A DNA stretch of 64,000 bases from an uncultured virus (IMG/VR IMGVR_UViG_3300042988_001414) (Duplodnaviria; Heunggongvirae; Uroviricota; Caudoviricetes): the IMG/VR virus record IMGVR_UViG_3300042988_001414, one strand, 5' to 3'. The notes beneath the pieces were generated by a model. The model saw nothing but the letters and a program-made list of their open reading frames with translations. It had not been told where the DNA came from and searched no databases. Shown here piece by piece: positions 10,286 through 57,438 of the stretch. Every line of letters starts with the position of its first letter. The stretch's first letter is position 1. The position numbers and the translations under genes were made by a program.

Positions 10286-12060
10286 AGGAACTTGCTCCGG
10301 TAGGCGGGATCGTTTTCGAGCTCGGCGAGCTGGGCCATGCGCTGCGCGCGCTGCGCAGGCGTCATCGGCGGATCGCGGGGTGGCTCGGACTTGGTGGGTG
10401 CCGCGGGCGGCGGCGGTTCGTCGACGTCGACGTCGTGCTCACGCTCGTTCAGCCAGTCCAGAAACTTTCGGGGGCTCCAGCCGGAGGTGAACTTCGGTTG
10501 CTCGCGATTCGCGTCGACCCACTCGGCGACGGCTTCTCGCAGCGCAGCGAGTGCTCCGGAGATGGTACCGTCGGCTCGCAGGTGAGTGTTGATCGCCGCC
10601 GCCAGCGCAACTCGAGGCGAGCGCTCGTTGACCACGGCCACCTCGTGGCCAAGCCCGCGAGCTAGCGCGTCGGAGAATGCGTAAACGGCTTCCTCCATGC
10701 CGGGTGTGCCAAGGTCGACAATGCGCTGGCGAGATGGTCCCGTCTCGCGCGGCGCGCCGAGCCCGACAACGAAGTCCAAGCGAGGATCTTTCCCGATCGG
10801 GTCCGGTGCTTCTCGCAGCACGACGATCCGGTGTGCGTCCGGGACTTGGGCGAGCTTGCGGATCGACTTCTCCCTCGGCGACTCCCGATCCAGTTCGATC
10901 GCGACCACGGTCGATCCGTGTCGCGCGACGATGTCGACGAATCCACGGCGGCCGTCGCCACGGTCTGCAACTTCGAACTCGCGCGAGCATTCGAAGCCGT
11001 GGGCGGTGAGGGTCTCGACCGCGGCATCGTTTAGCAGGCCGGCACCGGAGTAGCCTCGGAGCTTGCGCAACGCTGCCACGGCGTCGTCCGCCGATACCCG
11101 CCCCTTGGGCGGGGTAGGGGAGGGATCTCTTAAGGGGATCGGGATCGGGATCGGGGTACAGTTTTGCTTCGATTTTGCTTGAGCAAGTGCTTGAGCACTT
11201 GCTTGAGCAGGTGCTTGAGCACTTGCTTGAGCAGGTGCTTGAGCAAGTGCTACAGCAAGTGCTTGGTCCGTTTTGAAAACAGAAGCGTTTTCGGAAACTT
11301 GCAAGGCTTCCGACCGATCTCCGTCACGCGACCCTGTCTCATGGGTGGCGGTCAGGACGGTGAGTGGTGCTGCCAATCGGAGACCAGTCTGAGACGCCGC
11401 CGCGGTCAAGACAGCAGGACTCGCTACAGTTTTGCTCGCGCCTTGCTTCGATTTTGCTTGAGCAGGTGCTTGAGCACTTGCTTGAGCAGGTGCTTGAGCA
11501 CTTGCTTGAGCACTTGCTTGAGCACTTGCTTGAGCACTTGCTTGAGCACTTGCTTGAGCACTTGCTTGAGCACTTGCTTGAGCACTTGCTTGAGCAAGTG
11601 CTTCCGGGGTGGCTCGTGTTCGCTTTCGAGCGTTGGCCTGTCCACCCCGCCGACCGGCCTCAGTCCGCGCCGCCTTCTGCGCCTCGGCTTCTTCGCGACT
11701 TGGGTTGTACTCGAGGAAGTCGTGGATCCAGAACCCGCCGCGCTCCTCGTCCTCTCGCCAGAGGCCGCACCCAACAAGGGTCTTGGCGATGTTGTCGGCT
11801 TGAGCTTGCCCGAGGTCGTACAGCGCCTTTTGGGCGCTGTCCTTGAAGCCTTTGATGCTGTCGGTAGCCTCGACAAACTCGACGGCGAGATCGCTCAGGT
11901 CCAGAAGGAGTCGGACGCGTGGGTAAGGGATGAAGCCGTCGGTGAGCTTGCGACAACACCAGGTGATGGCGGCTATGTGCAGCGCAAAGCCGAGCACCCC
12001 AGCATTTGCGATCTTCTCGTTGTCGAGAATTTCATCGTCGATCTTCGCCCAGACCATCAA
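10282..12060 (-). CDS. Phage replication initiator with internal AQAS repeats and a PD-(D/E)xK-like segment
   Basis: WAKIDD...TDGFIP...IHDFLEYNPS phage-Rep N-terminus; PIPIPIP linker; FVDIV...AIELD; upstream of primase/DnaB. Confidence 0.75.
   Translation of the reverse strand: MMVWAKIDDEILDNEKIANAGVLGFALHIAAITWCCRKLTDGFIPYPRVRLLLDLSDLAVEFVEATDSIKGFKDSAQKALYDLGQAQADNIAKTLVGCGLWREDEERGGFWIHDFLEYNPSREEAEAQKAARTEAGRRGGQANARKRTRATPEALAQASAQASAQASAQASAQASAQASAQASAQASAQAPAQASAQAPAQAKSKQGASKTVASPAVLTAAASQTGLRLAAPLTVLTATHETGSRDGDRSEALQVSENASVFKTDQALAVALAQAPAQASAQAPAQASAQALAQAKSKQNCTPIPIPIPLRDPSPTPPKGRVSADDAVAALRKLRGYSGAGLLNDAAVETLTAHGFECSREFEVADRGDGRRGFVDIVARHGSTVVAIELDRESPREKSIRKLAQVPDAHRIVVLREAPDPIGKDPRLDFVVGLGAPRETGPSRQRIVDLGTPGMEEAVYAFSDALARGLGHEVAVVNERSPRVALAAAINTHLRADGTISGALAALREAVAEWVDANREQPKFTSGWSPRKFLDWLNEREHDVDVDEPPPPAAPTKSEPPRDPPMTPAQRAQRMAQLAELENDPAYRSKFL
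11164..11264. repeat. 12-bp tandem repeat block 1 (TGCTTGAGCACT-type), candidate origin iterons
   Basis: About 7 near-identical 12-mers, AT-richer than the background, inside the rep gene. Confidence 0.85.
11443..11602. repeat. 12-bp tandem repeat block 2, candidate origin iterons
   Basis: About 12 copies of GCTTGAGCACTT; same TTGCTTCGATTT lead-in as block 1. Confidence 0.9.
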
Positions 12061-12878
12061 CCACCTCCGTGTCGAGTTGCGAGCACGTCGAAGAGTGCAT
12101 GCTGCCGCGCGCGCGCCGCTTGGACGGTCGACCCGGCCTCTTCGGCGCGGAGCCGCTCGCAGGCGAGCTCGAAGTACCGCTCGTCCCTCTCGACGCCGAT
12201 GAAGCGCCGCCCGAGCCGAAGACAGGCCACGCCTGTCGTCCCGCTACCGGCGAACGGGTCGAGGATCGCTTCACCGTGCTGAGAGAAGTCGGAGACGAGC
12301 TGCAACATGAGCGCAACCGGCTTGGACGTCGGATGCTCGTTCTTCCCGCCGCCGCCAGCGTTGTGGTCCAGCGGAACCGTCCACACCGCGTGCTTCCCGC
12401 CGCCGTTCCAGCGCTTCCGGCCTTTCGGGTGAACGATGGCCAACGACTCGAAGCCCTGACCAGGACGATCGCCGGTCATCTGCGGCATGCCGTTGGGCTT
12501 GATCCAGACGCCAGCTCGGATCCACTGGAGGCCAGCTTCTTCGAACGCCTGGCGCCACAAGCCGATCGCTTCGACCTGACAGAACGTGAGTGTCCATCGG
12601 CGAACGATGCGGGCTTCGAGCCGCGAGACATCGGACCTCAACGCTGAAGTCATGTGCGTGAAGTTGATGAGCAGCGGTCGGTCGATGCGCCGGACCTCTC
12701 CGGTGTTTCGAGCTCCGCGCTTCTGCGTTGCGTCCTTCAGAGACCGACGCGCCTTGGTATGCGCCTCCACCTCGTACGGCGGATCCTGAATGCACACGTC
12801 GACGGGCTCGAGTTTCGGCAAGACGTCGACGCAGTCGGCCAAGTGCATCGGCCAGCCCGCCCCGCACTCGGTCCTCAT
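12057..12878 (-). CDS. DNA methyltransferase (N6-A/N4-C, beta class)
   Basis: QDPPY, HPTSKP, ILDPFAGSGTTG, FIGVE. Confidence 0.92.
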   Translation of the reverse strand: MRTECGAGWPMHLADCVDVLPKLEPVDVCIQDPPYEVEAHTKARRSLKDATQKRGARNTGEVRRIDRPLLINFTHMTSALRSDVSRLEARIVRRWTLTFCQVEAIGLWRQAFEEAGLQWIRAGVWIKPNGMPQMTGDRPGQGFESLAIVHPKGRKRWNGGGKHAVWTVPLDHNAGGGGKNEHPTSKPVALMLQLVSDFSQHGEAILDPFAGSGTTGVACLRLGRRFIGVERDERYFELACERLRAEEAGSTVQAARARQHALFDVLATRHGGG

Positions 12879-13663
12879 GCGTCACGTCCTCGGATCGGGA
12901 TGACCGCGGCAAACCTGGACGGCATCCGAAGCTGAATCGGTGTGCGTCGGAAGTGCGCACGCATCTCTGATTCGTATTCGCGCCACGACGTCGCGCGACG
13001 GGCAATGAAGAGAGTGAGGACCATGTCCTCTCTCCGAATGAGCCGCAGCCTGTCATCACGGATCCACTGTCCGTGGAGGCTCCCGTCCCTTGGCTCCGGA
13101 TTACGGGCCTTCAGCTCGTCGTAGACGGCATCGCCAAGGATGATGCGCCACGTCCTACCGTAGGCGAGGGCGAGTCCCCTTGGCTCAGGACCGTGGCCTG
13201 GACCTGGCGTCCATCCCTTCACCTTCCGGAGTCTGGCGAGCTCCAGCTTCAGCTCCGTATCCCAGGCCGACTCGTAGTCAGCGGAGTTGAGGCGCTGAAT
13301 GCGGAGGGCAAGGTGGACGGCCTCCGGATCGCGAACCGTCAACTGCCCAGTGGCGAAGGCGCGGTAGACGTCGTTGACTCGCGCGTGGAACGCGTGATCG
13401 ATCCACTTGGCGTAGGCCAGCGCGAGCTGCCAGTGCGTCCACGTCTCTCCGCCGCCACCCGCGATTTTGCGGGTTTTCTTGATATGGGCAGGGCCCACAT
13501 CAAGGGAATCAGACAGAAATTGAGCGAATGTCGCCCCCTCAAATCGAAGGAACTCCGCAGGCCGCTTGTCCTTCGGCGCGCCCGCCGCGCGCCACAGATC
13601 GGTGATGCACCACATGTCGCCGTCGCGGCGAACAGAGTGCGGACCAATCACAAGCGCGCTCAT
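12875..13663 (-). CDS. KilA-N domain protein (antirepressor-like)
   Basis: CITDLWRAAG...P.EFLR...GGGETWTHWQLALAYAKW. Confidence 0.85.
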   Translation of the reverse strand: MSALVIGPHSVRRDGDMWCITDLWRAAGAPKDKRPAEFLRFEGATFAQFLSDSLDVGPAHIKKTRKIAGGGGETWTHWQLALAYAKWIDHAFHARVNDVYRAFATGQLTVRDPEAVHLALRIQRLNSADYESAWDTELKLELARLRKVKGWTPGPGHGPEPRGLALAYGRTWRIILGDAVYDELKARNPEPRDGSLHGQWIRDDRLRLIRREDMVLTLFIARRATSWREYESEMRAHFRRTPIQLRMPSRFAAVIPIRGRDA

Positions 13664-22995: not shown

Positions 22996-24150
22996 ATGAA
23001 GTTCATTGCCTCTGGCGACCATCACTGGGACGAGCACTCTCGGTTTGACGAGTGCATCCGCATCCACTCGTGGATGGTGGATCTGGTCCGACGCGAACGG
23101 CCCGACGTCTTCCTGTCCGCCGGCGACATCTACGAGCGCGCTTCGACTCCGAAGGAACGTGAGGAAGTCGCAGCGTGGCTCGTGGCAATCGCCGAAGTCA
23201 GCCCAGTCGTGGTCGTCAAAGGCAACCACGATCGAGCCTTCGATGCCCATCTGCTGCGCAGGCTCAAGTCCGTTCACCCCATCATCGTCGATGAGCGCTG
23301 CGGCGTTCATCGCGTTGGCGGCGCCGCGATCGCGACCCTGGCGTGGCCGAGCCGCGCGAGCATTCTCGCGATGCTGGGACGATCGGCCTCCTCACAAGAC
23401 GCTGACGTCGCCGCGACTCTGGCGTTGCAGGACGTTCTACGAGGGCTCGGGGCCGAGCTCGCAGAACACGATGGGCCTCGCGTGCTCCTCACGCACGCGA
23501 TGATCGATGGGGCGGTGACGAGCCTCGGACAGCCGCTCATCGGCGCCGAGATGAGGATCACCCTGTCAGACCTGGCGCTGGCCCAGGCGCAGGTGGTCAT
23601 CGCAGGGCATATTCACTGTCCACAGCGGTGGGACTACGGCGCGATGCCTGTGATCTACACGGGGTCACCTTTCCGAACGGCCTTCGGCGAGACCGAAGAG
23701 AAGTCGGTTTTGCTGGTCGAGATCGATGGCGCGACCGTCCGATGCGAGCGCGTCCCGACACCAGCCACGCCCATGCTCCTCATCGAGGGAGTGTGGCGTC
23801 CAGAAAGCGGATCGCTCGACGTCACGAGTGAGACGGCACCTGTTCCTCAACGGTGTACCGGTGCGGAAGTGCGGCTCCGCTACACGGTAGACGCGGACCA
23901 CCGCGATGCGGCGAAGCGCGCTCTGTCCGAGCAGCGTCAGCGTCTCATGGACGCAGGCGCGCGGTCGGTGAAGCTCGAAGAGGTGGTGACGGCGACGGTG
24001 CGTGCGCGCGCGCCGGAGATCGCGGCAGCGAAGACTCTGGAAGAGAAGCTTGGAGCGTTGTGGCGAGCTCGGAAGAACGAGCCCACGCCCGAGCGCGCCG
24101 CGCGACTCATCACGAAGACGCACGAACTGGAGAGCGAGGTAGCGGCATGA
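22996..24150 (+). CDS. sbcD: SbcD/Mre11 nuclease
   Basis: GDHH, AGDIY, GNHD, AGHIH, YTGSP. Confidence 0.9.
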   Translation: MKFIASGDHHWDEHSRFDECIRIHSWMVDLVRRERPDVFLSAGDIYERASTPKEREEVAAWLVAIAEVSPVVVVKGNHDRAFDAHLLRRLKSVHPIIVDERCGVHRVGGAAIATLAWPSRASILAMLGRSASSQDADVAATLALQDVLRGLGAELAEHDGPRVLLTHAMIDGAVTSLGQPLIGAEMRITLSDLALAQAQVVIAGHIHCPQRWDYGAMPVIYTGSPFRTAFGETEEKSVLLVEIDGATVRCERVPTPATPMLLIEGVWRPESGSLDVTSETAPVPQRCTGAEVRLRYTVDADHRDAAKRALSEQRQRLMDAGARSVKLEEVVTATVRARAPEIAAAKTLEEKLGALWRARKNEPTPERAARLITKTHELESEVAA

Positions 24151-26579
24151 AGTTCGATCGCTTGCGAGCAAAGGGCTTCGGGCCATTCAAGGACGAGATC
24201 GACGTCGACCTGGCAAGTATCGACGGGAAGATCATCGCGGTGACCGGCGCGAACGGTGCGGGCAAGAGCACGTTGATCGAGCTTCTGGCCGCATCCATCT
24301 ACCGGAACTGCCCAACGCGCGGGTCGCTCGCAGAACTGGCGACAGCGCGGGACGCGTTCCTGGAGGTGAGCGTAGTGAACGGGGCGTCTCATCGCGTCCG
24401 ACACATCGTGGACGCGGTGAGCAAGAAGGGCGAGGCCATCGTCACCGACGCGGAAGGTAGGTCGCTCGTCGCGTCAGCGAAGGTGAGGGACTACGACGCT
24501 TGGGCGGCAAAGCACTTCCCGCCGGCGGAGGTCTTCTACGCGTCGACGTTCGCGGCGCAGGGGTCCGGTGGATTCCTCGATCTGAAGCCCGGAGAGCGGA
24601 AGGGCGTGCTCTTGAGGGCGCTCGGGATCGAGCGGCTCGAAGCGCTGGCCGAGAAGGCTCGCGAGCATGCTCGGGCGACGAAGGGTGAGATCACTGTCCT
24701 GGAGGCACGCATCGCAGACGAGCGAAGTCGAGCGAGCGATCCGGTCAAGGTGTCCTCGGAGTTGGAGACTCTTGGTTCACGCAGGTCCGAGCTGGAGATC
24801 TCGCTTACTAGAGCCCGCGCAGCGCTCGCCGATGTCCTCGCCAAAGAGCAGGCTGCGAAGGCCGCCATTCGTGCCGCAGAGGACGTGCGGCGCCGACGGT
24901 CGGAGCTGGAGGCGCGGCTCAACGATGCGCGCACGAAACGCGATGACCTGTCCCGTCGCATCGGCAACAACGAAGGCTTGATCGCGCAAGCATCGGAGAT
25001 CCGATCCGCCCAGGAAGCTGCCCTTCGACTCGACCTCGAACTCGCCGAGCTGGTCTCCGACGAGCGCGAAGCACGATCCGCAGAGGCAGCGGCACGCCGC
25101 GACCGTGCAGCGCAACGGGACGCGCTCGCGGATGTGAACAACCGAGCGATGCGGGCCGCCGACCGGAGGCGGCGCGCCGAGTCCAGACTCGCGGACAAGT
25201 CCGCGGTCGAGGCCGCGGTAGCGTCGCTGTCTGATCTGCGCGCTGCGGTGGTTTCGGCCGAATCCGTCGTGAAGTTGCTCGAGACGGCGTTCAAGAGGAC
25301 GGCAGACGTCACACTCACATCGACATCGTCTCGTATCGACAACCTTCGTGCTCCGCTCACCGCCATCGCCGATGGCGCGGACAACGCCGCGACCATCGCC
25401 ATGGAGGCACTGGCTGCGGACGACAAGGCCGCTCGTGAGGTTGTTGAGGCCTCCGAACGAATGATTCGCGAGCAGTCCGATCTGGATCGCGCTCGCGCGT
25501 GTCTCGCGTCGACGCAACGTGACCTCGCTTCGGCCGAACGCACGGCCGCGCGCGCGAAAGAGATCGAGGCGGCGGAGTTGGAGTTGACGGAGGCGCAAGC
25601 CGAGGTGACTCGTCTCCTGGACGAGGCCACGGCCGCACAAGCGGCCTTCAAGGCAGCCAAGCGGTCGCTGGTCGTGGCAGCGGAGTCGGCGACGAAGGTG
25701 ATGAGTCAGCGCGATGCGCTTCAGGCAAAGCGCACGCAGCTCGATCCGCTGGTGAAACTGGCCGACCGGCTCACCCAAGCCGAGACGCGCATCAGCGAGC
25801 TCTTGCCTCAGTCAGCGTCAATCGCGGCAGACATCGAAGCACTGGAGAGGGAACTCGCGAGCACCCCGATGCCGTCGGATCCGGACCCGCTGCCAGACGT
25901 CATCTCGGTGCGAGACATCGCCGATGTGCTCGACCACGAACTGCGGGGCGTCGAGGCCGCCATCGCCGTCAGGGAGGCGCAGCTTTCGGACGCGCGCAGC
26001 GCAGAAGCGCGGCTCCGCGATCTGGAGACCGAGCGGCGCCGTGTGGATCAGGAGCTGGCGGACTGGACGCGGCTTGCTGACGATCTGGGGCGCGATGGTC
26101 TTCAGGCAATGGAGATCGACGCGGCCGGCCCGGAGTTGACCGAGTTGGTGAACGATCTTCTTCGGACGTGCGTGGGATCGCGCTGGACGGTGACGATCGA
26201 GGCATCGCGACAGTCGAGCGACGGAAAGCGGCAGCTCGAAGGGTGTGAGGTGCGCGTGCTCGACACCGAGCGCGGTCGAGAGGGCACCGCGGAGACGTTG
26301 AGCGGCGGCGAGCGCGTCATCGTCGGTGAGGCGGTGAGCTTGGCTCTCAGCATGCTGGCGTGTCGCCGAAGCGGGGTGCAAGGGGCGACGCTCGTTCGTG
26401 ACGAGTCGGGGGCAGCGCTCGATCCGGCGAACGCTCCCGCATACGTGGCGATGCTGCGACGGGCTTCGACCATCGTGGGCGCGAGTCACGTTCTGTTCGT
26501 CTCGCACTCTCCGGAAATCCAGGACCTTGCTGACGCTCGGATCGTCGTCCAAGGCGGGAAGGTGCAGGTGGCAGCGTGA
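24147..26579 (+). CDS. sbcC: SbcC/Rad50 SMC ATPase
   Basis: GANGAGKST, long coiled coil, LSGGE, RDES..ALD, FVSH. Confidence 0.92.
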   Translation: MKFDRLRAKGFGPFKDEIDVDLASIDGKIIAVTGANGAGKSTLIELLAASIYRNCPTRGSLAELATARDAFLEVSVVNGASHRVRHIVDAVSKKGEAIVTDAEGRSLVASAKVRDYDAWAAKHFPPAEVFYASTFAAQGSGGFLDLKPGERKGVLLRALGIERLEALAEKAREHARATKGEITVLEARIADERSRASDPVKVSSELETLGSRRSELEISLTRARAALADVLAKEQAAKAAIRAAEDVRRRRSELEARLNDARTKRDDLSRRIGNNEGLIAQASEIRSAQEAALRLDLELAELVSDEREARSAEAAARRDRAAQRDALADVNNRAMRAADRRRRAESRLADKSAVEAAVASLSDLRAAVVSAESVVKLLETAFKRTADVTLTSTSSRIDNLRAPLTAIADGADNAATIAMEALAADDKAAREVVEASERMIREQSDLDRARACLASTQRDLASAERTAARAKEIEAAELELTEAQAEVTRLLDEATAAQAAFKAAKRSLVVAAESATKVMSQRDALQAKRTQLDPLVKLADRLTQAETRISELLPQSASIAADIEALERELASTPMPSDPDPLPDVISVRDIADVLDHELRGVEAAIAVREAQLSDARSAEARLRDLETERRRVDQELADWTRLADDLGRDGLQAMEIDAAGPELTELVNDLLRTCVGSRWTVTIEASRQSSDGKRQLEGCEVRVLDTERGREGTAETLSGGERVIVGEAVSLALSMLACRRSGVQGATLVRDESGAALDPANAPAYVAMLRRASTIVGASHVLFVSHSPEIQDLADARIVVQGGKVQVAA

Positions 26580-26583
26580 CCAA

Positions 26584-26823
26584 GGCAGGCACGGACTGGC
26601 CCGGCGGGGACTGGCTCGGCAAGGCGCGGCATGGCGAGTCGTGGAGTGGCGAGGCACGGCTAGGCAGGCACGGCCCGGCGAGGAGTGGCGCGGCGGGGCG
26701 GGGCTGGGCGGGGCTGGGCAGGGCCTGGCGCGGCAGGAGCGGCTAGGCGCGGCGGGCATGGCGGGGCGAGGCAAGGCGAGTCTCGGCTAGGCCAGGCGCG
26801 GCTTGGCGGGGCGGGACGGGCGC
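26584..26823 (+). repeat. GGC-NN pentamer array 1 (candidate guide ncRNA)
   Basis: About 45 units of GGC/GGA + variable dinucleotide in strict 5-nt phase, broken by 4-nt units; intergenic. Confidence 0.9.
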
Positions 26824-26872
26824 AACAACTTTGGGACGACAACTTAGTAACGACAAATCAGAAGAGGAAACC

Positions 26873-27661
26873 ATGGCAAAGCAAAACACACCGACCGAAA
26901 TCGACATCCTCCGAGTCACGCATGGACGCTTCGAGGCGTGCGTGCTCGGGACAACACCGCTCGTCCTCAACCGGATGAGCGAGAAGGCGAAGCGAGAGCT
27001 ACTCCAGCCAAGCGGAAAGAAGAACGCGGCGCAAAAGGCGAGCACCGCGAAGCACGACCCGATCGCAGAGTTTCGCGCCTCCGCGTACCAGGACCGCGAC
27101 AAGTCATCGCCTGCGCTGCTTCAGCATCTTTCGAGCGCGTTCAAGGGTGCGATCGCGTCAGCGGCGCTCGACCTTCCAGGCGCGAACAAGGCGCAGATCT
27201 CACGGCTCACGTGGGTCGTCGGCGAACGGATCCACATCTTCGGACGCCCGAAGATCTTCTGCGCGGTCACGCGCTCGGCGGACATGAACAAGACGCCCGA
27301 CGTTCGGACACGCGTGATCGTCCCCGAGTGGGCTTGCCGAATCACCGTCGCGTTCGTGACGCCTCTTCTCAAGGACGTTGGCGTCGCCAACCTGCTTGCG
27401 TCGGCTGGAGTCACTCAGGGCGTTGGTGATTGGCGAACGGGCAAGGGGAAGGGCACCTACGGCAGCTTCGAGCTCGTGAACAACGACAACCCCGAATGGC
27501 TTCGAAGGATGGCCATCGGGCGCAAGGACCAAGAACAAGCCATGGCTCACCCAGAACCTTACGACGACGACACCGAGGAACTCCTGTCTTGGTGGGGCGG
27601 TGAAATGACGAAGCGCGGGTTCGCCAGCTCCGTCTCGACGAACGGGGTGGCTGCGTCATGA
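26873..27661 (+). CDS. Stand-alone Cas7/RAMP-like protein
   Basis: N-terminal strand VLGTTPLVLN, SAFKGAI helix, C-terminal glycine-rich loop GVGDWRTGKGKGTYGSF; GAGGA RBS. Confidence 0.7.
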   Translation: MAKQNTPTEIDILRVTHGRFEACVLGTTPLVLNRMSEKAKRELLQPSGKKNAAQKASTAKHDPIAEFRASAYQDRDKSSPALLQHLSSAFKGAIASAALDLPGANKAQISRLTWVVGERIHIFGRPKIFCAVTRSADMNKTPDVRTRVIVPEWACRITVAFVTPLLKDVGVANLLASAGVTQGVGDWRTGKGKGTYGSFELVNNDNPEWLRRMAIGRKDQEQAMAHPEPYDDDTEELLSWWGGEMTKRGFASSVSTNGVAAS

Positions 27662-28125
27662 CGTCCAGGCAGAAGAGAGTCATCGCAGCGATCGCTGAGC
27701 TGGAACTCCGCTCGCCCGGTAACGAGATCACTCCGCGCGCGCTCTGGGAGTCAGCGCGAGAGGAGTCGCATCCACTTCACGACGAGTTCGAATGGGACGA
27801 CTCGGTTGCGGCCGCCGCACATCGTGACGAGCAAGCGCGGCGTCTGCTTCGTCTTCGCATCACGACAACGATCGAAGACCGAATCATCCGAGCTCCGATC
27901 TGCGTGCGCTCACCGGATGCTCTAAAAGGCGAGGCAGGCTACACGCGGACGATGTCGATCTTGGACGACAAGGCACGAGCCAAGCGTGCCTTCCTGGAGG
28001 AGGCCGATCGCGTCGCTCGCATCGTTGAGCGATTGCAAACACTGGCCTCCGCGTTCGGTCTCGAGGCACAGTGCGCGGAGATCCTCCGCGAGCTCGGAGA
28101 AATACGCCGCGCGGCTGCTGCGTGA
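27658..28125 (+). CDS. Conserved phage protein coupled to the RAMP-like gene
   Basis: HPLHDEFEWDDSVAA...QAR motif; ATGA overlap. Confidence 0.75.
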   Translation: MTSRQKRVIAAIAELELRSPGNEITPRALWESAREESHPLHDEFEWDDSVAAAAHRDEQARRLLRLRITTTIEDRIIRAPICVRSPDALKGEAGYTRTMSILDDKARAKRAFLEEADRVARIVERLQTLASAFGLEAQCAEILRELGEIRRAAAA

Positions 28126-28131
28126 TTGATC

Positions 28132-28646
28132 GGCGTGGCATGGCGGGCGAGGCCTGGCTCGGCGAGGCCTGGCGAGGCGCGGAATGGCGGGACGTGGCGA
28201 GGCAGGCGCGGAATGGCGAGTCTCGGCTAGGCCAGGCGCGGCTTGGCGGGGCCAGGCGTGGCGATGCAGGCGCGGAATGGCGGGGCCAGGCGTGGCGAGG
28301 CGATGCGGGCAGGGCGTGGAATGGCGGGGCATGGCGGGGCCAGGCGTGGCGAGGCGATGCGGGCAGGGCGTGGAACGGCTAGGCGGGGCCTGGTCAGACG
28401 ATGCGGGCGAGGACCGGCGAGGACCGGCGCGGCTGGGCTTGGCGCGGCGCGGCATGGCGAGGCATGGCATGGCGGGCGAGGATAGGCGGGGCCGGGCGAG
28501 TCGCGGATGGGAGCGGACCGGCAGGCGAGGCGCGGCCAGGACAGGCGCGGCCGGGCATGGCGGGGCGGGCAAGGCATGGCAGGGCCGGGCGGGGCCGGGC
28601 ATGGCAAGGCGCGGATCGGAACGGCGGGCGAGGCATGGAACGGAGA
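28132..28646 (+). repeat. GGC-NN pentamer array 2 (candidate multi-guide ncRNA)
   Basis: About 95 pentamers arranged in about 9 blocks separated by (G/T)GC(A/G) tetramers. Confidence 0.9.
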
Positions 28647-28653
28647 TGAATGG

Positions 28654-29091
28654 ATGAACACGAGCAAGACATCAGGGCGCGCGCAACGACGAGCCGCCGC
28701 GGCCATCGTGCGAAGAGAGATGAAACGCTCGTGGCAGGAGTTCGAACTGGTTCGCGATGCGGACTACGCCGGACTGTTCGAGCGACAGCGAGCCAACGTC
28801 GGCGACCTGGAGTCGGTTTGGAAGAACAACCTCTTCGTCGTTCAGGTTTATCGACGCGCAACAGTCCACGGCGTGGCACTTCATCTGGCGATTCGACGCA
28901 ATGATGCGTCTGAGGTTCAGGGGTGGGACGACCTCCAGCGCATCAAGAATTCGATCGTCGGAGTCGACCGTGTGGCGATCGAGATCTACCCACGACAGGA
29001 CGACGTCATGGATCAGGCGAACATGCGACACCTCTTCGTTCTGCCGCCGGGTGTGGCAGCTCCATTCACGCGTCATGGACGGTGGGAGTGA
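28654..29091 (+). CDS. Conserved phage hypothetical protein
   Basis: WDDLQRIKN...AIEIYP...DQANMRHL motif. Confidence 0.75.
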   Translation: MNTSKTSGRAQRRAAAAIVRREMKRSWQEFELVRDADYAGLFERQRANVGDLESVWKNNLFVVQVYRRATVHGVALHLAIRRNDASEVQGWDDLQRIKNSIVGVDRVAIEIYPRQDDVMDQANMRHLFVLPPGVAAPFTRHGRWE

Positions 29092-29429
29092 TGACGATCG
29101 CAAACTACGAACGACTGGTCGACCGATGCCGAATGCTCGGCGTCCTCCACGTCGCAAACCGCGTCTCTCGAGAGGTTGGCATCCCGTTGCAGGCGATGCT
29201 GAGCGCGTCTCGCTCTGGGACTCTCGTGAGAGCTCGCCGAGCGCTCTACCTCGCGTTGCGTGCGGAGGGCCTGAGCTACCAGGAGATCGGCCGCTGCGTC
29301 GGTCGCGACCACACGACCATCATCGCAGCACTGAAGGGACGAGCGAGCGACCAGTGTGCCCAGTGCGGGAAGCCAATCGACCAACACGCGCCGCAACCTG
29401 ACCTCGCCGAACGAGTGCGGGTCGCCTGA
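29091..29429 (+). CDS. DnaA C-terminal (domain IV)-like HTH protein
   Basis: LVRARR...LSYQEIGRCVGRDHTTII. Confidence 0.8.
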   Translation: MTIANYERLVDRCRMLGVLHVANRVSREVGIPLQAMLSASRSGTLVRARRALYLALRAEGLSYQEIGRCVGRDHTTIIAALKGRASDQCAQCGKPIDQHAPQPDLAERVRVA

Positions 29430-29509
29430 CGCTTCGAAGAGAGCGAGGCCGATCCGACAGCAACGATCCGGAAATTCCGGATCGTTCCCACACGCCACAA
29501 GAGGACTAG

Positions 29510-30640
29510 ATGGACATCACCGTATCGAAGAAAGAGCTACTGAAGGTCGCCGCACGCATGGCCGGCATCGCGGAGCGCAAGAGCACCATGCCGATGCTCG
29601 CCAGCGTGCTCTTGGTCGCTAGGGACCAGGAGTTGGAGCTCGCCGCAACCGACCTCTATCTTGCCCTGCGCGGGACGATTCCCGTCGCGGAGTCCCGCCA
29701 AAGCGGAAGCGTCGCGATTGGTGCGAAGGACTTCGTCGACCGCATCAAGATGCTCCCAGACGGACCTGTTCGTCTGACGGCGGACGAGAGATCGCTGACG
29801 ATCAAGGGCGGAGGCGCACGCAAGTTCACCATGCGCGGCTTCGGCGGCGGCGACTTCCCGCCGATCCCAGCGCCTGATGAGCACGCCCAGGTGATCATGA
29901 TCGACGCGACGGCGCTCGTGGCGTTGATCGAGACAACGAGCTTCGCGGTGAGCCCAGACGAGACGCGCCCGCACATCAACTCGGCACTGATCGAGTGGAA
30001 GGGGCAGTCCCTCCGCATGGTGGCAACGGACGGACACCGTCTTGCTTATGCCGCGCGGCAGGTGGCAGGGACGGCGGAGTCATCGATCTTGATCCCACTC
30101 AAGGCACTTCGAGAGGTACGGCAGCTCGCGGAGGACGTTGCAGCGTCGGCTGGGGAGCAAGTCATCAAGCTGGTGACCTCATGGAGACATGCCTTCCTGA
30201 CAGCGAATGCGGCGCAGTCGATGACGTTCGGGCTCAAGATCGTGGAGGCTGTCTTCCCTCCGTACGAGCAAGTGATTCCGACCGCGAACACCCATCGTGC
30301 ACGCGCGCCACGCGTGCAACTGCTCGACGCCGTCCGTGCGGTGGCCATCGCCGCCCCAGACAGAACAGGTGCACTGAGGTTCGAATTCTCAAACGGTCGC
30401 CTGCTCATCACTGGGGCCGATGCCGACTCAGGTGATGGCGAGGACGAGGTTTCGGTCGACTACGTGGGTCCGAATATCGCGCTTGGATTCAACTCGCGCT
30501 ACATCGCCGAGGCGCTTGGCGCACTAGACGCCGATGACGTGGAGCTTGCCTTCAACGGTGAGCTCGACCCCATCGTTCTACGACCACTTGGTGAGTGCGC
30601 GACCGACGCGATCCACGTCGTGATGCCGATGCGAGTGTGA
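29510..30640 (+). CDS. dnaN: DNA polymerase III beta clamp
   Basis: ATDL, DETRPHIN, VATDGHRLA, FPPYEQVIP, GFNSRY, VVMPMRV. Confidence 0.95.
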   Translation: MDITVSKKELLKVAARMAGIAERKSTMPMLASVLLVARDQELELAATDLYLALRGTIPVAESRQSGSVAIGAKDFVDRIKMLPDGPVRLTADERSLTIKGGGARKFTMRGFGGGDFPPIPAPDEHAQVIMIDATALVALIETTSFAVSPDETRPHINSALIEWKGQSLRMVATDGHRLAYAARQVAGTAESSILIPLKALREVRQLAEDVAASAGEQVIKLVTSWRHAFLTANAAQSMTFGLKIVEAVFPPYEQVIPTANTHRARAPRVQLLDAVRAVAIAAPDRTGALRFEFSNGRLLITGADADSGDGEDEVSVDYVGPNIALGFNSRYIAEALGALDADDVELAFNGELDPIVLRPLGECATDAIHVVMPMRV

Positions 30641-30659
30641 CGACGCAAGGAGGACCACC

Positions 30660-30938
30660 ATGACCGATCGCGTGCGATGTCCATACGAGCCTCAGGCCAA
30701 GCGCGGCGTGTGCGAGCGCAACGGGTGCAATCACTACGCGGCGAACAGAGCGCGCATCTGTCGCTGTTGCCTTGCGCAACTTCCGAGCGAGCTGGCGAAC
30801 AAGCTCTCGCTGATGTGCCAGATGGCGAACGACCTTGCTGTGCTGGATGCGGAGCAAGACAAGGCGCTAGCTACCCTCAACGCAACGGAGCCGCGCAAGG
30901 TCTTCGGTCGGCGATGGAAGCCGACCACCTGGCAATGA
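30660..30938 (+). CDS. Cys-rich hypothetical protein
   Basis: AGGAGG RBS; ORF track. Confidence 0.5.
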   Translation: MTDRVRCPYEPQAKRGVCERNGCNHYAANRARICRCCLAQLPSELANKLSLMCQMANDLAVLDAEQDKALATLNATEPRKVFGRRWKPTTWQ

Positions 30939-30958
30939 AAGAACGAACCGGAGGAACC

Positions 30959-31234
30959 ATGAGCCAATTGAGCAAGGGTATTTCGAACGCAGCGCGCGAC
31001 CACTTCCACGTGGAGGTTGGGAGGCAGCTCCAGGAGATTCGCAAGTCGAAGGGCATGACGTGTCGTGAGCTCGGTGCGAAGACCGGTCTGACTCTGTCAT
31101 CGATCACGCACGCGGAGGCAGGGCAAAGCCTCTCTTTCATCGCCGCGGCCCTCATTGCCAAGGCGCTCGGCGTGACGCTCGCAGAGCTCGTTCCGCCATC
31201 GTCTCTCGAGAGGCCTTGGGAGCGAGCCGGATAG
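30959..31234 (+). CDS. XRE-family HTH regulator
   Basis: LQEIRKSKGMTCRELGAKTGL...IAKALGVTLAEL. Confidence 0.8.
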   Translation: MSQLSKGISNAARDHFHVEVGRQLQEIRKSKGMTCRELGAKTGLTLSSITHAEAGQSLSFIAAALIAKALGVTLAELVPPSSLERPWERAG

Positions 31235-31426
31235 GACTTCGCCGAGTCGCACCCCTCCCCCTCCTGCGATTCGACGGCCCGCTGGCAGACCGGGCAATGT
31301 CTGCCGCCTGACTCACCAGGGAACCATCGCGCTGCAACGCGATGCTTCGAAGCAAGCTGGCAGACCTTGTCCCGCAAGTCTGCAAGAGGGTGGCTGGCGA
31401 TGTCTGCTCGCTCGCCACTCTCGCCT

Positions 31427-31522
31427 GACTCGGTAGCTCAGACGGTAGAGCAGTGATGGCGCTCTTTGTTCACCGGAGCGTCGTCACATGGGTCGCAGGT
31501 TCGAGTCCTGCCCGAGTCACCA
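31427..31522 (+). tRNA. tRNA-like RNA with aberrant extended anticodon arm (no assignable anticodon)
   Basis: Acceptor GACTCGG/CCGAGTC + ACCA; D arm GCTC..GAGC; T arm GCAGG-TTCGAGT-CCTGC; 12-bp stem with 11-nt loop in the anticodon position. Confidence 0.8.
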
Positions 31523-31541
31523 GCGAAAGGTGTATGATGCA

Positions 31542-31751
31542 ATGAACAAGAGACAACGAGTCGAGAAGTACTGGTCGATCTGGAAGCTGAGCGACAGTGG
31601 GGATGACTGGCACCCATACGACGAGGGAATCACGACGCGTCGCAGGGCAGAGGAGGAGCTGCGCGAACTCCTTCAGGATGGCTGGCCGGGGGAAGAATTC
31701 TGCATCGTGCGCACGACGCACGAGCGCGTTCGGGAGAGGAGGAAGAAGTGA
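31542..31751 (+). CDS. Hypothetical protein
   Basis: Coupled small ORF. Confidence 0.45.
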   Translation: MNKRQRVEKYWSIWKLSDSGDDWHPYDEGITTRRRAEEELRELLQDGWPGEEFCIVRTTHERVRERRKK

Positions 31752-32083
31752 CCCCCGCATCTGACTGCGCATGCGAGTCGCGCGTATTTGACCCAGACAT
31801 GATCGGGCAGACCTGCGGCGACCTGTGGCTGCAAGGCTGGGACGTCTGCACTCGATGCGGCAAGTGCTGGCTGTCCAAAGACTGCAAGCCGTGTGCTGCG
31901 CTGGTGTGGACACTGTGCAAGGGAGGACGATCCGTGGACATCGGCAACGGTCGCATTCGATGCACGATCAAGGCGGAGAGTGGTGAGCGACTCGACGTGC
32001 AAGGACTCATGGCACGGATCGCGAGACTGCCAGAGCTCGAACGCGAACTGGCAGAACTGCGCGCAAAGGGTGGGAGACAATGA
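31748..32083 (+). CDS. Cys-rich hypothetical protein
   Basis: Coupled ORF. Confidence 0.45.
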   Translation: MTPASDCACESRVFDPDMIGQTCGDLWLQGWDVCTRCGKCWLSKDCKPCAALVWTLCKGGRSVDIGNGRIRCTIKAESGERLDVQGLMARIARLPELERELAELRAKGGRQ

Positions 32084-33144
32084 CATCCGCAATCGACGCA
32101 ACAGCATGGCTCCGCGACATGAAGGCCGCCGAGTCCGACAAGCTTGCGCGCCTCGAGACAGAGGCTGTGCATGACGAGGCCGCACGAGAGGTGCTGGCTG
32201 ACGTGTACGAGGGAGCCGGTCGCAGCAAAGATGCGGCGTTGCTTCGTGGCGAGATCTTCCCACTACCGCCGAAGCGACCGCGCAAGCGTATCGAGAAGCT
32301 TACGAGCACCGAGGAAAACAAAATGCGCGGGTGGGCGCAGCGCTGGATCGAGATTGGGCTACGCCATGGCCCGACTACGGCCATCGACGTGGCACAGTTT
32401 CGGGCTGGGATCTGCGCGGCGTACGAGGCCGCGAAGCTAGCTCCGCCGAAGCGAATCGTGTGGACGACGTCGCCGCTCGCCGCGGTGCTCGCGGGGCCCA
32501 TCGCGATGCATGTGCTGGGCAGCGGAGCGCTGAACGTAGCAGTACCTGGAGCAATCAGGCAGGCCGTGGGCATCGCGGTGCGCGGCGCGGTGGACGTCGC
32601 GGTGGACGTCGCGGTGGACGACGCGGTGAGCGGCGCGGTGGACGTCGCGGTGCGCGATGCGGTGAGCGACGCGGTGAGCGACGCGGTGGACGACGCGGTG
32701 AGCGGCGCGGTGAGCGGCGCGGTGAGCGACGCGGTGGACGACGCGGTGAGCGGCGCCCCATCGGTCATTAGGGACAACTGGTACCGGTACCTAGGAGGCC
32801 AGCCGTGGGTCGGATGGGGATACGGTTATCGGGGACCAGCCTACGTCTCGTTCCTCCAGGACGTGTGCAGACTGCAACTGGCTCCCGCCATCGAGCGAGC
32901 TGCGCGAGCGTATCAGGCGATCTGCCGGTCGTGCTGGTGGCTCTGGCCTCACAGTGACTTCGTGATCGTGGCTCCTCGTCCGATGCGGATCGAGCGTGAC
33001 GCGGATGGTCGGCTGACGCTGGCGGAGTGGCCCGATGGGTCACGTGTCGAGCGTGGCAAGGATGGGACGTATCGGCTCAACGTGGATGTCCGCAAGGTGC
33101 TGGCGATGCTGGGAGGTGAGCGCGAAGGGAAGGAGGGCTCGTGA
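32080..33144 (+). CDS. DUF6745-like protein with internal tetrapeptide repeats
   Basis: YEAAKLAPPKRIVW.TSP; (AVSD/AVDD)n; CWWLWPHSDFVIV.PRP.RIERDADGRL. Confidence 0.65.
   Translation: MTSAIDATAWLRDMKAAESDKLARLETEAVHDEAAREVLADVYEGAGRSKDAALLRGEIFPLPPKRPRKRIEKLTSTEENKMRGWAQRWIEIGLRHGPTTAIDVAQFRAGICAAYEAAKLAPPKRIVWTTSPLAAVLAGPIAMHVLGSGALNVAVPGAIRQAVGIAVRGAVDVAVDVAVDDAVSGAVDVAVRDAVSDAVSDAVDDAVSGAVSGAVSDAVDDAVSGAPSVIRDNWYRYLGGQPWVGWGYGYRGPAYVSFLQDVCRLQLAPAIERAARAYQAICRSCWWLWPHSDFVIVAPRPMRIERDADGRLTLAEWPDGSRVERGKDGTYRLNVDVRKVLAMLGGEREGKEGS
32574..32756 (+). repeat. 12-bp coding tandem repeat (GCGGTGNNNNNC)
   Basis: About 15 units encoding AVxx. Confidence 0.85.
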
Positions 33145-33446
33145 TGTCGAAAGCGAAGCTGGGACGCGTAACAGTGCGGCAGGAGCCGCACGAGAGCGGG
33201 CTGGCGCAGGTGACGCAAAGCCCGCGCGGATTCATCATCTCGGTCAACGGCAAGCGCGTTGGATGCGTGCGTTATGCACGGAGAGTGTTGGGGTCGGGCG
33301 CTCCGTGGTTTTGGTACGCGCACGTCGGGAATAGCGCCGGAGGTCACAAGTCCTTTGCGACGCGCGAAGAGGCGCGCGACGCGTGCGTTGCGTGGGTCAA
33401 GGCGGCGATGAAGGAAGAGGCGCGTGCAAAGGAAGGTGGGACGTGA
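33141..33446 (+). CDS. Hypothetical protein
   Basis: Coupled ORF. Confidence 0.5.
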   Translation: MMSKAKLGRVTVRQEPHESGLAQVTQSPRGFIISVNGKRVGCVRYARRVLGSGAPWFWYAHVGNSAGGHKSFATREEARDACVAWVKAAMKEEARAKEGGT

Positions 33447-37267: not shown

Positions 37268-37605
37268 GGATCATCTACGAGACGTACTTGACCGTTGCCC
37301 AAGACGACGTGGACCGGATGAACGAGGCCATCGCGTCGTTGCCGGCATCACTGGTCCCGCGTGCTGGCGAGCGCGTTCGGGTCCCGTTCATCGACGTCAA
37401 GCGCGACGGGCACTTTGATCTGGAGGTGGCGAAGGTCACGCACTGCCCGTGCGATAACATCGTGGTCGTCAGACTCACCATCCCATCGGACCATCGGCCT
37501 TGGACCGCAGAGAGCTGGTCGGAGTGGTTTCGGCAACGGCGCGGCGAGCAGCCGAACCATTCGGCCATTCCTAATGGTTCGACGGCGGAGGCGCCTCATG
37601 GTTGA
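37264..37605 (+). CDS. Hypothetical protein
   Basis: Coupled to the int stop. Confidence 0.5.
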   Translation: MRIIYETYLTVAQDDVDRMNEAIASLPASLVPRAGERVRVPFIDVKRDGHFDLEVAKVTHCPCDNIVVVRLTIPSDHRPWTAESWSEWFRQRRGEQPNHSAIPNGSTAEAPHG

Positions 37606-52477: not shown

Positions 52478-53809
52478 TCACCAGGTGTAAACGATGCAGT
52501 ACCCGCCGCCGCCCACTCCACCGGCGCCGCCGAGGCCAGGGTTCATCCCGACGCCGCCGCCGCCACCACCGCCACCGCCGAGACCTCCTGCACCGCCCGC
52601 CGCGCCGGCTGTGGATGCCGTGACGGTCGTGCCGCCGCCGCCACCACCACCGCCGCCCTTGCCGCTGTTACAAGCGGCGCCATCGCCGCCTGCCGTAGGC
52701 GTGGCGCCGGAGGTGCCTACCGATGCACCACCGCCAGCCGCGTACGAGCCAGACCGACCGCCAGCGCCGCCGGCGACGATCGCTGGGACGTTGCTGTGAG
52801 ATCCGCCCGCGCCGCCACCGCCGCCGCCGCGGAGCGATGAGCCGCCAAGAGAAGAAGCGACTGGCGTCGCTGCGATGCCGGCGCCACCCGCGCCGCCGAA
52901 TTCTGCATTCGCGGTCGTGGACACCGCCGCGCTACCGGTGACCCCCTGCCCGCCTGCGCCGTTCGTGGCCGCCGTTGGAAGGCCGCCAGTGCCTCCGGAT
53001 GTGGTCCCGGACGCGCCCGCGCCGCCAGCGCCGCCACCACCGCCGCCGCCGGTGACCGCCGCGGAGATTGCGCCGCCAGCGCCGCCACCACCGCCGTACG
53101 CGGTGAGCCACGTCCCGAACGTCGTGTTGCCTCCGATGCCACCCGCGCCGCCCGCGGCGCCTGCCGCGCCGGGCGCGCCCGCGGTCCCGCCGGCGCCGCA
53201 CGTGACGGACTCCGTCGAGCCGAGATCAGCAGCGTTGAACACGCCGCGAACCCACGCACCGCCACCGCCGCCACCGCCACCCTTGGCCACGGTCGCAGTC
53301 GCGAGTGATGCGCCCGCACCTCCGCCGCCGCCGGCGCCGATCGCCTCGACGATGACGACCTTCGGGGTGAACGCCGTGGGCTTCGTCCACGTGCCGCTCG
53401 CGGTGAAGATCTGAATGTCAGGAGGCCCAGCGTTCGTCGTGAGGAGCTCCGCGCCGCCCGCGCCGAAGCGGACCCACGATCCGTTCTGCGTGAACAGGAC
53501 CGACTCGCCAGCGGCGAGCGTTCCCTTCCACAGCGTGACCTCGGTGGTGCCGTCCGTGTGCGTGACCTCGACCAGGTTGGACGTCGAGCCGTGGTCGTTG
53601 CGGATGTGGATCCCGCGGACGTTGCGCTGGACGCTCGAGCCCGGACTTCCAACGATGTTGGTGGTGGTCGCCGTTGAGATCGTGAAGTTGTCCGCCGCCG
53701 CCGTGATGGTGCCCGCGTTGTTGTCGGCGTAGCTGACCTGCACCTCGACGGTGCCCGCCGAGCCCGTGATGAGCTTCACGAGCGATGTGTTCGTGTCGAG
53801 GATCAGCAT
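52478..53809 (-). CDS. Glycine-rich virion/fibre protein
   Basis: FTASGTWTKP...GAGGGGG glycine-rich domain. Confidence 0.7.
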   Translation of the reverse strand: MLILDTNTSLVKLITGSAGTVEVQVSYADNNAGTITAAADNFTISTATTTNIVGSPGSSVQRNVRGIHIRNDHGSTSNLVEVTHTDGTTEVTLWKGTLAAGESVLFTQNGSWVRFGAGGAELLTTNAGPPDIQIFTASGTWTKPTAFTPKVVIVEAIGAGGGGGAGASLATATVAKGGGGGGGGAWVRGVFNAADLGSTESVTCGAGGTAGAPGAAGAAGGAGGIGGNTTFGTWLTAYGGGGGAGGAISAAVTGGGGGGGAGGAGASGTTSGGTGGLPTAATNGAGGQGVTGSAAVSTTANAEFGGAGGAGIAATPVASSLGGSSLRGGGGGGAGGSHSNVPAIVAGGAGGRSGSYAAGGGASVGTSGATPTAGGDGAACNSGKGGGGGGGGGTTVTASTAGAAGGAGGLGGGGGGGGGVGMNPGLGGAGGVGGGGYCIVYTW

Positions 53810-56925: not shown

Positions 56926-57438
56926 CTACTGTTGGATGTGCGTCGGCTGGTAGGGCTGCTGTTGATGCGATGCTGTGTAGGCCTGCGCCAAGATGTTGAG
57001 CACGGCGACGATGAACGAGAGGACGAGTGACAGCTTCGTCAGCTTCTTGACGTTGGTGACGTCGTTCGACACCGCCGTCTGTCCGACGACCAGCGCGCTC
57101 GTCGCTGCGCCCGCCGTTGCGGCTCGAGCCATGGCGCCCTTCTCGAGTGCGTCGATCCTCTTGTCGAACGCTTCGAGTCGGTCGTTCGTGATCGACTGAG
57201 CCGCGAGGATCTGCTCTCCGACCGTGACGCGGATCTCTTGCGAGGACTGACGTACGCTTTCGGCGAGGTCCTTGTGCGCGCCGGAGTGCCGACGCACGGC
57301 CTCATCGTGGCGCGTGTCGACGGCACGAAGCGCGTCGATGTCCGTCCTGAGATCCTGGGTGACCTGCTTGACGGCGCGTGCGACCTCGGTGGAGATCAGG
57401 AGGCGCATCTTGGCGAGGTCTTCGTTCGTCATGGTCAC
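56926..57438 (-). CDS. Coiled-coil protein with C-terminal TM helix
   Basis: LSLVLSFIVAVLNILA. Confidence 0.6.
   Translation of the reverse strand: MTMTNEDLAKMRLLISTEVARAVKQVTQDLRTDIDALRAVDTRHDEAVRRHSGAHKDLAESVRQSSQEIRVTVGEQILAAQSITNDRLEAFDKRIDALEKGAMARAATAGAATSALVVGQTAVSNDVTNVKKLTKLSLVLSFIVAVLNILAQAYTASHQQQPYQPTHIQQ

Follow-up and report, generated by a model that had tools for sequence, protein, structure and literature searches.

VIPR (Viral Interference Programmable Repeat) is a CRISPR-related, RNA-guided DNA silencer that was first described in 2026 (10.64898/2026.04.26.720920). According to the preprint that introduced it, the system is borne by phages and comprises a RAMP protein (Vipr), an accessory gene (vap), and guide RNAs, termed vrRNAs, of 9–16 YNNGG repeats (10.64898/2026.04.26.720920). 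Each Vipr protomer is reported to bury one GGY and to present the NN to DNA, and the filament reads double-stranded DNA with every third base skipped and silences rival elements (10.64898/2026.04.26.720920, 10.64898/2026.04.26.720927). Here we describe a locus at positions 26584–28646 of a stretch of 64,000 nucleotides from an uncultured virus of the Caudoviricetes (IMG/VR record IMGVR_UViG_3300042988_001414); this whole stretch is referred to below as the window. The locus is very probably a VIPR system of a temperate phage, in which a vipr gene and an overlapping vap-like gene are flanked by two vrRNA arrays of the staggered form, both on the strand of the genes.

Seven types of VIPR and a list of 667 systems have been published (10.64898/2026.04.26.720920), and two type II systems are the only ones studied in depth. 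In type II, as the preprint describes it, each repeat tract of a vrRNA is followed by a 3′ tail that is invariant and structurally conserved, and the accessory gene is vap1 (10.64898/2026.04.26.720920). In Escherichia phage SUSP1, the layout of protein plus arrays has been reported to yield guide RNAs experimentally (10.64898/2026.04.26.720920), and in the structure of its Vipr the GGY is held by R138, D177, W178, R179 and H17, in a pocket that excludes purines (10.64898/2026.04.26.720927). The legend to fig. S18 of the first preprint shows staggered arrays, in which neighbouring vrRNAs overlap by 1 nucleotide, the end of one being the start of the next (10.64898/2026.04.26.720920). Several of the vap proteins, which run from vap1 to vap6, are stated there to be winged-helix-like (10.64898/2026.04.26.720920).

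Arrays and Vipr protein of the locus

The two G-rich tracts of the locus (26584–26823, array 1, and 28132–28646, array 2), when read directly, are arrays of GGC-NN pentamers on the strand of the genes. Parsed together they contain 154 units, the first base being G in 149 of these and the second in 148. The third base is most often C (130 units), followed by A (22), with one G and one T, and the triplets include 120 GGC, 22 GGA and one GGT; C or A is thus usual and T is nearly never found. Positions 4 and 5 vary, and all 16 of the 16 possible dinucleotides are present. In both arrays, GGC starts are spaced 5 nucleotides apart over long runs. Base identity at lags of 5, 10 and 15 nucleotides is 0.62, 0.62 and 0.60 in array 1 and 0.58, 0.57 and 0.56 in array 2, and lies at 0.26–0.40 for every lag from 1 to 14 outside the multiples of 5. 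As a control, each tract was compared with 1000 mononucleotide shuffles of itself: array 1 has 41 units that belong to GGY chains of 6 or more (shuffle mean 6.2, maximum 27), and array 2 has 81 (mean 10.9, maximum 40). Outside the arrays, the 64-kilobase (kb) window contains two chains of at least 8 units, at 57358–57466 (plus strand, 9 units) and 53013–53074 (minus strand, 8 units).

A preliminary description, made from the sequence alone, had reported two such arrays of a near-constant triplet and a variable dinucleotide, with all 16 dinucleotides, and these observations are borne out by the parsed units. It had also stated that the 5-nucleotide phase is exact, which is not correct. The dynamic-programming parse identifies 14 units of four bases, of which array 1 has 4 and array 2 has 10; each of them moves the phase by −1. 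They have the form GGCR, or TGCR in four cases, and are followed immediately by GGC. The junctions formed by these short units split the arrays into 12 blocks of 8–17 units and four short fragments, and the blocks adjoin one another with no spacer in either array. The block boundaries, as seen in the DNA, are candidate ends of vrRNAs. Block lengths are in line with the published vrRNA length of 9–16 repeats, particularly as the most frequent lengths in the family (see below) are 9–11 units. Because the one-base-short junctions agree with the 1-nucleotide overlap in the legend to fig. S18 (10.64898/2026.04.26.720920), the arrays are assigned to the staggered form. Some of the units have been copied: a 54-nucleotide tandem duplication with 94% matches lies inside array 2 (28269–28379), and a stretch of 38 nucleotides is identical between array 1 (26775–26812) and array 2 (28215–28252).

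The gene at 26873–27661 encodes a protein of 262 residues, whose translation contains the motifs LGTTPL and GVGDWRTGKGKGTYGSF. The thumb arginine is R147 and the G-loop runs from G183 to G197, with GVGDWR at 183–188. The protein has no match in Pfam and no meaningful match among PDB sequences, and the PHROGs matches for this gene and its partner are to families of unknown function alone (phrog_4652 and phrog_15946). The best structural matches of the modelled protein are Csm3, Cmr4 and Cas7 chains, at sequence identities of 7–18%, and on this basis the protein is predicted to have a Cas7/Csm3-type RAMP fold. It belongs to a family of 1657 proteins at E ≤ 0.001 (90% clusters), or 1454 representatives (50% clusters), in which R188 never varies and conservation reaches at least 90% for R147 and D186.

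A profile of the window family (113 sequences) matches one open reading frame (ORF) of SUSP1 with an E value of 4.7e-10. This ORF is followed by a gene of 146 residues, has intergenic flanks of 449 and 531 nucleotides, in both of which pentamer arrays were detected on the gene strand, and its residue numbering gives R138, C173, D177, W178 and R179 as in the preprint. Since the profile match, the flanking arrays and the numbering all agree with the preprint, the ORF was taken as the reference Vipr. Profile-to-sequence alignment with hhalign (97% probability, E 9.5e-11, 52 columns) places SUSP1 R138, D177, W178 and R179 opposite R147, D186, W187 and R188 of the window protein, with the G-loop residues inside the common GVGDWR. 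Four of the five residues that hold GGY in SUSP1 are therefore conserved in the window protein, which ties the window clade to a characterised Vipr. By this alignment, the two proteins are homologous in sequence across the region of the thumb and the G-loop. One further pairing was tried and rejected, namely that H17 of the window protein corresponds to H17 of SUSP1, as the motif alignment sets SUSP1 H17 opposite N33.

The resemblance to SUSP1 extends to the layout. Both loci have the order array, vipr, vap, array on one strand, and a unit period of 5 nucleotides, together with the common GVGDWR and the aligned thumb arginine. They differ in that SUSP1 has 4 vrRNAs, each with an invariant 3′ tail and a pseudoknot, whereas about 12 are predicted in the window and neither tail nor pseudoknot was seen at its arrays, and in that the accessory proteins show no sequence relationship. 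The 3′ tail and vap1 that mark type II were accordingly not found at the window locus. The window protein is also about 60 residues longer at its C-terminus than the 195-residue SUSP1 Vipr, which lacks the C-terminal helical extension (approximately residues 203–250); in the window family this extension forms conserved helices.

Compared with the staggered VIPR systems of the preprint, the window locus likewise has a single small RAMP gene and one accessory gene in a phage, no CRISPR array and no cas genes, and GGY-NN arrays that flank the genes on the same strand, with one-base-short junctions between blocks. It differs in the size of Vipr, given as about 20 kDa in the preprint, and in the third base of the unit, which is C or A in the window while the published consensus is GGY (10.64898/2026.04.26.720920). 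The locus thus combines Vipr homology, the GGY-binding residues, flanking arrays, an adjacent accessory gene and a viral context, which are the features of VIPR. It differs more clearly from the systems that contain Csm3 and Cmr4. Cas10, Cas5, Cas6, the small subunit and a repeat-spacer array are all missing from the locus, which leaves it without the features of type III CRISPR-Cas (Cas10 and other effector subunits, Cas6, repeat-spacer array), and the guide period in VIPR is 5 nucleotides with 2 bases read, compared to 6 with 5 read (10.64898/2026.04.26.720920).

The partner gene (27658–28125) is less easily placed. It has no match in Pfam. Its model is of fair quality (pLDDT, predicted local distance difference test, 87.3) and shows an N-terminal part that is weakly winged-helix-like, followed by a helical hairpin. 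Foldseek gave nothing at E ≤ 0.001 for this model, and a wider structure search matched the C-terminal helical hairpin alone. A DNA-binding role is plausible from the model, because it agrees with the statement in the preprint on winged-helix-like vap proteins.

Homologous loci

Loci of homologous vipr genes were collected from species genomes (16 loci), from viral contigs (80 of 198) and from metagenome contigs (80 of 425); they are not all independent, as some contigs occur in two collections. An array was counted where a chain of 10 or more GGY units lay on the same strand within −2000/+2500 nucleotides of vipr. Such an array is present in 89 of the 96 genome and viral loci (downstream only in 72, upstream only in 3 and on both sides in 14), whereas a chain of at least 10 units on the minus strand is found in 4 of the 96. 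Seven of these loci have no array, and 4 of the 7 have less than 900 nucleotides of downstream flank. Among the metagenome loci, 52 of 80 have an array, and 23 of the 28 without one have a downstream flank shorter than 700 nucleotides. If loci with at least 1500 nucleotides of downstream flank are drawn from all 176, the same-strand array is present in 90 of 96.

A homologue of the partner gene adjoins vipr in 30 of the 96 genome and viral loci and in 59 of the 80 metagenome loci (89 of 176). Other neighbours of the window locus are rarely found near vipr: SbcC, SbcD and DnaN in none of the 96 loci, and DUF7694 in one. Because the arrays and the partner recur while the other neighbours do not, the conserved module consists of arrays, vipr and partner, like the published two-gene loci.

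The staggered layout is a general property of the family. The arrays of 141 loci were parsed, with identical arrays counted once, and the irregular steps comprise 799 of four bases, compared to 67 of six, 17 of three and 8 of eight. At least two four-base steps are present in 111 of the 141 loci. The commonest internal block lengths are 9, 10 and 11 units (110, 108 and 89 of 712 blocks), and the commonest junctions are GGCG/GTC (287) and GGCA/GGC (221), where the slash marks the junction. The one-base-short junction and the block length of 9–11 units are thereby shown family-wide.

Two relatives have further pentamer arrays on the same strand 5–8 kb away from vipr (L110:1790-4236 and L141:7778-7985), which may be solo vrRNA arrays. 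The virus record nearest to the window phage (G001, 31 kb) has no Vipr.

Members of the family are also found in cultured phages. A tblastn search identified them in 32 phage records, 27 from phages of Mycobacterium and 5 from phages of Gordonia, with 28–34% identity over 64–78% of the query. Mycobacterium phage Zizzle has an array of 46 units directly upstream of gp54 (L223:2092-2344, approximately 37299–37551 of MZ274306.1), and Gordonia phage Pipp has one of 42 units directly downstream of gp42 (L224:3071-3299, approximately 33095–33323 of MN234179.1). Both have GGCA/GGC junctions and blocks of 8–12 units. They resemble the window locus in having the same protein family with the same GGC-NN arrays directly beside the gene, and differ in having a single array per phage rather than two. 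GenBank annotates these tracts as genes for hypothetical proteins (Zizzle gene 53 and Pipp gene 43). The hosts of Zizzle-type phages and of Pipp are cultured (M. smegmatis mc2 155 and Gordonia terrae, respectively), which makes these phages practical experimental systems for studying processing, the reading rule and targets.

The assignment of the window locus to VIPR is made because five lines of evidence agree, namely the RAMP fold, the homology to SUSP1 Vipr, the GGC-NN arrays, the linkage of arrays to the gene across the family, and the one-base-short junctions. The preliminary description had anticipated much of this. The RAMP hallmarks that it listed, the LGTTPL strand and the glycine-loop motif, are indeed in the translation; structural comparison of the model, a check of the kind that it proposed, gave Csm3, Cmr4 and Cas7 chains as the best matches; and its expectation that homologues would be flanked by arrays with a 5-nucleotide period is confirmed by the 90 loci noted above. 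It had also mentioned the name VIPR, and this was right, as the preprints describe a Vipr RAMP protein with GGY/NN vrRNAs (10.64898/2026.04.26.720920, 10.64898/2026.04.26.720927). It follows that its caution over novelty was warranted: a system of this kind is already published, and the window locus is an additional staggered-array example, well resolved and with about 12 guides.

Proposed action, guide targets and alternatives

By analogy with the work on SUSP1 and P. fulva, we propose that transcripts of the arrays would be divided at the junctions, by cutting or in some other way, into about 12 vrRNAs. Vipr protomers would polymerise along each of these, one per pentamer, burying the GGC and presenting the NN pairs. 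The filament would then read double-stranded DNA by a gapped code, in which each NN is most likely followed by a single skipped base corresponding to the codon wobble position, and would silence genes of rival phages or satellites at the level of transcription, probably with assistance on DNA from the partner protein.

Targets were sought for the 12 window guides by replacing every GGY with one free base, following the published 1-nucleotide skip, in search sets that did not include rival elements of the phage's own host. No guide beats its shuffles in a scan of the window itself, where for every guide 8–97 of 100 shuffles reach the best score. In the reverse direction, 523 guides of relatives gave 15 matches to the window at 80% or better, compared to 13 for shuffles.

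An all-against-all search was made with 534 guides that have 9 units or more. It covered both strands of 1.86 Mb of sequence, with skips of 0–3 bases. Two perfect matches were found, where chance would give about 0.009 for each skip model. In the first, with a skip of 1, a guide of 10 units (L088:4465-4514) matches L054:32-61 at 20 of 20 NN positions. The site is in the gene for the terminase large subunit (TerL; PF20441, E 7.4e-41) of a second phage that also has Vipr, and all the skipped bases fall at the codon wobble position. As far as the sequences go, this match agrees with the published 1-nucleotide-skip rule and its rationale. In the second, with a skip of 0, a guide of 9 units (L071:4937-4981) is identical over 18 of 18 contiguous bases to L195:3877-3894 on the minus strand, within an HNH-endonuclease-like ORF of a third phage; 12 shuffled replicates at skip 0 gave no perfect match. 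This may be chance, or it may hint that the reading rule is not uniform, and it raises the question of whether the gapped code is the same in all VIPR clades. Near-perfect matches (at least 85%) are no commoner than in shuffles at any skip from 0 to 3, so that the evidence on the reading rule is thin.

A number of results weigh against the interpretation of the locus as a VIPR system acting by the published rule. Several come from the search for targets. The 12 guides gave nothing above shuffles in the 176 homologue loci, and no target in 40 additional stretches of related phage contigs. Exact scans of viral contigs with cores of 9–11 units from 7 guides gave 0 matches for six of them and 1 for the other, and an exact scan of metagenome contigs gave 0. 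When four guides were compared with 39–41 genomes or records, allowing up to 3 mismatches, there was one match with 3 mismatches (G006), which was read as chance. The perfect skip-0 match lies outside the published rule, and its p value as a chance match is about 0.01 if the four models and two databases are not corrected for; given this match, natural targets do not settle the reading rule for the window clade. The single match of the exact scans, in an AT-rich contig of 176 kb (L100), was read as chance, as it does not extend past the seed (18/26).

Other such results concern the proteins and the arrays. The part of the protein that can be aligned to SUSP1 Vipr is limited to the C-terminal 52 columns; H17, which by eye lies opposite N33, is not conserved; and the DNA-contact residues K33, R39, K82 and K88 of SUSP1 have no alignable counterpart in the profile alignment. 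The partner has no sequence similarity to SUSP1 vap1, and its best Foldseek matches, which are to winged-helix domains (forkhead, MarR/PadR and Fur) over about 100 N-terminal residues, have E values of 0.16 upward. In 22 of the 154 units (14%) the triplet ends in A, while the published pocket excludes purines. The sequences 3′ of the two arrays differ from one another, with no constant tail or type II-like pseudoknot to be seen, and an Rfam scan of 26000–32000, ribozymes included, found nothing other than one transfer RNA (tRNA).

The lack of a tail and of a ribozyme does admit a further idea, although we regard it as rather unlikely: in this clade the register of the repeats may itself set the guide boundaries, and parts of the clade may read DNA by a rule other than the 1-nucleotide skip. 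The one-base-short unit (GGCR/GGC) would break the phase of the filament, such that Vipr would act as a ruler for each vrRNA and the unprotected junction would be trimmed. The alternative reading rule is hinted at because of the perfect 0-skip match of a relative's guide in the HNH-like gene.

The absence of a rival-element target for any of the 12 guides in the sets searched could also mean that this is a VIPR-type machine with some other purpose, either the regulation of the phage's own genes or those of its host, or action on RNA rather than DNA. The published filament does pair with single-stranded RNA in vitro, albeit incompletely (10.64898/2026.04.26.720927). We consider this improbable, as there is no self-match in the 64-kb window above shuffled guides, the single clear natural match in the family is in the terminase gene of a rival phage, and the published systems are reported to act on the double-stranded DNA of competing elements (10.64898/2026.04.26.720920). 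It is more improbable still that the G-rich tracts are elements acting at the level of DNA, such as G-quadruplex-prone repeats or signals for replication or packaging, placed beside an unrelated RAMP-fold gene. Their composition (78–80% G+C, G-rich on one strand) would suit such elements, as would the lack of any promoter-like site (a sigma-70 promoter scan gave 0 sites). Terminator-like sites are close to shuffle level. Against this, the structure of constant GG and variable NN, and its strand, go together with the Vipr family in many phyla (90 of the 96 loci with sufficient flank), the blocks have discrete lengths and a conserved junction motif, and the same layout in SUSP1 gives guide RNAs experimentally (10.64898/2026.04.26.720920).

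Two other explanations have very little to recommend them. The arrays of the relatives carry coding-sequence annotations, and open frames span both arrays of the window (for example 28184–28657, 157 residues), as would be expected if the tracts encoded protein in the way that GenBank has it for Zizzle and Pipp. The three forward frames are, however, open merely through composition, and a codon frame cannot survive a 5-nucleotide period with −1 slips, as the preliminary description had already argued from the period; we find a coding function scarcely credible. We give just as little credence to a degenerate or minimal remnant of class 1 CRISPR-Cas, that is, a stand-alone Cas7 with a decayed array. 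It would be in keeping with Csm3, Cmr4 and Cas7 chains as the best structural matches, but the protein is homologous in sequence to Vipr and not to any Cas7 family. Searches for tandem and other repeats gave pentamer-derived periods only and no repeat-spacer array, the three locus proteins have no match to any PADLOC model, and the 37 proteins of the window that were compared with Pfam or PHROGs include no cas gene.

Coordinates and phage context

The features of the VIPR locus are listed in Table 1. Array 1 begins 5 nucleotides past the stop codon of the upstream gene, and array 2 begins 7 nucleotides past the stop codon of the vap-like gene.

Table 1. Positions of the genes, arrays and candidate vrRNA blocks at the locus. 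Block limits are those of the junctions in the DNA.
Feature	Position	Strand	Remarks
Array 1, upstream vrRNA array	26584..26823	+	Three blocks of 12–17 units and two short fragments
Candidate vrRNA block, 17 units	26583..26667	+	Ends at one-base-short unit GGCA/G
Candidate vrRNA block, 14 units	26667..26736	+	Junction parse
Short fragment, 4 units	26736..26755	+	Junction parse
Candidate vrRNA block, 12 units	26755..26814	+	Final 38 nucleotides (26775–26812) identical to 28215–28252
vipr gene, 262 residues	26873..27661	+	Cas7-like RAMP (predicted fold)
vap-like accessory gene, 155 residues	27658..28125	+	Start overlaps vipr stop (ATGA)
Array 2, downstream vrRNA array	28132..28646	+	Nine blocks of 8–14 units and two short fragments
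Candidate vrRNA block, 12 units	28146..28205	+	Junction parse
Candidate vrRNA block, 13 units	28205..28269	+	Junction parse
Candidate vrRNA block, 8 units	28269..28308	+	Within 54-nucleotide tandem duplication 28269–28379
Candidate vrRNA block, 11 units	28308..28362	+	Junction parse
Candidate vrRNA block, 9 units	28362..28406	+	Junction parse
Candidate vrRNA block, 14 units	28406..28475	+	Junction parse
Candidate vrRNA block, 10 units	28475..28524	+	Junction parse
Candidate vrRNA block, 9 units	28524..28568	+	Junction parse
Candidate vrRNA block, 12 units	28568..28627	+	Junction parse

In the gap that separates array 1 from the start codon of vipr there is a 14-nucleotide direct repeat in 2.3 copies (26825–26856, consensus ACAACTTAGGAACG), which could be an operator or leader element.

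Portal, terminase, DnaB, integrase and baseplate genes are present in the window, and the source phage is, judging from this gene content, temperate. Its terminase is about 28–29% identical to those of cultured phages. Directly upstream of array 1 there is a nuclease pair, consisting of an SbcD-like gene (22996–24150) and a gene for an SMC/Rad50-like ATPase (24147–26579). The preliminary description had noted that no nuclease is nearby; this fails for the window, where the SbcCD-like pair is immediately adjacent, but holds for the conserved module, to which the pair does not belong (0 of 96 loci).

Some other features of the window may be mentioned. A long tRNA-like gene is found at 31427–31522 (Rfam tRNA, 50.2 bits, E 8e-9), for which ARAGORN gave no anticodon. 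Two tandem arrays of a 12-nucleotide repeat (TTGCTTGAGCAC) are located at 11176–11265 (about 7.5 copies) and 11454–11596 (about 12 copies), in approximately 1.4 kb that contains no gene by rough ORF picking. Near them are a gene for a DNA methyltransferase and an adjoining gene (12875–13663) that matches a PHROG family of transcriptional regulators. These repeats may be iterons or a partition site. A different 12-nucleotide tandem repeat, in 15 copies (32574–32756), lies inside the ORF at 32080–33144 and therefore gives a four-residue repeat in the protein.

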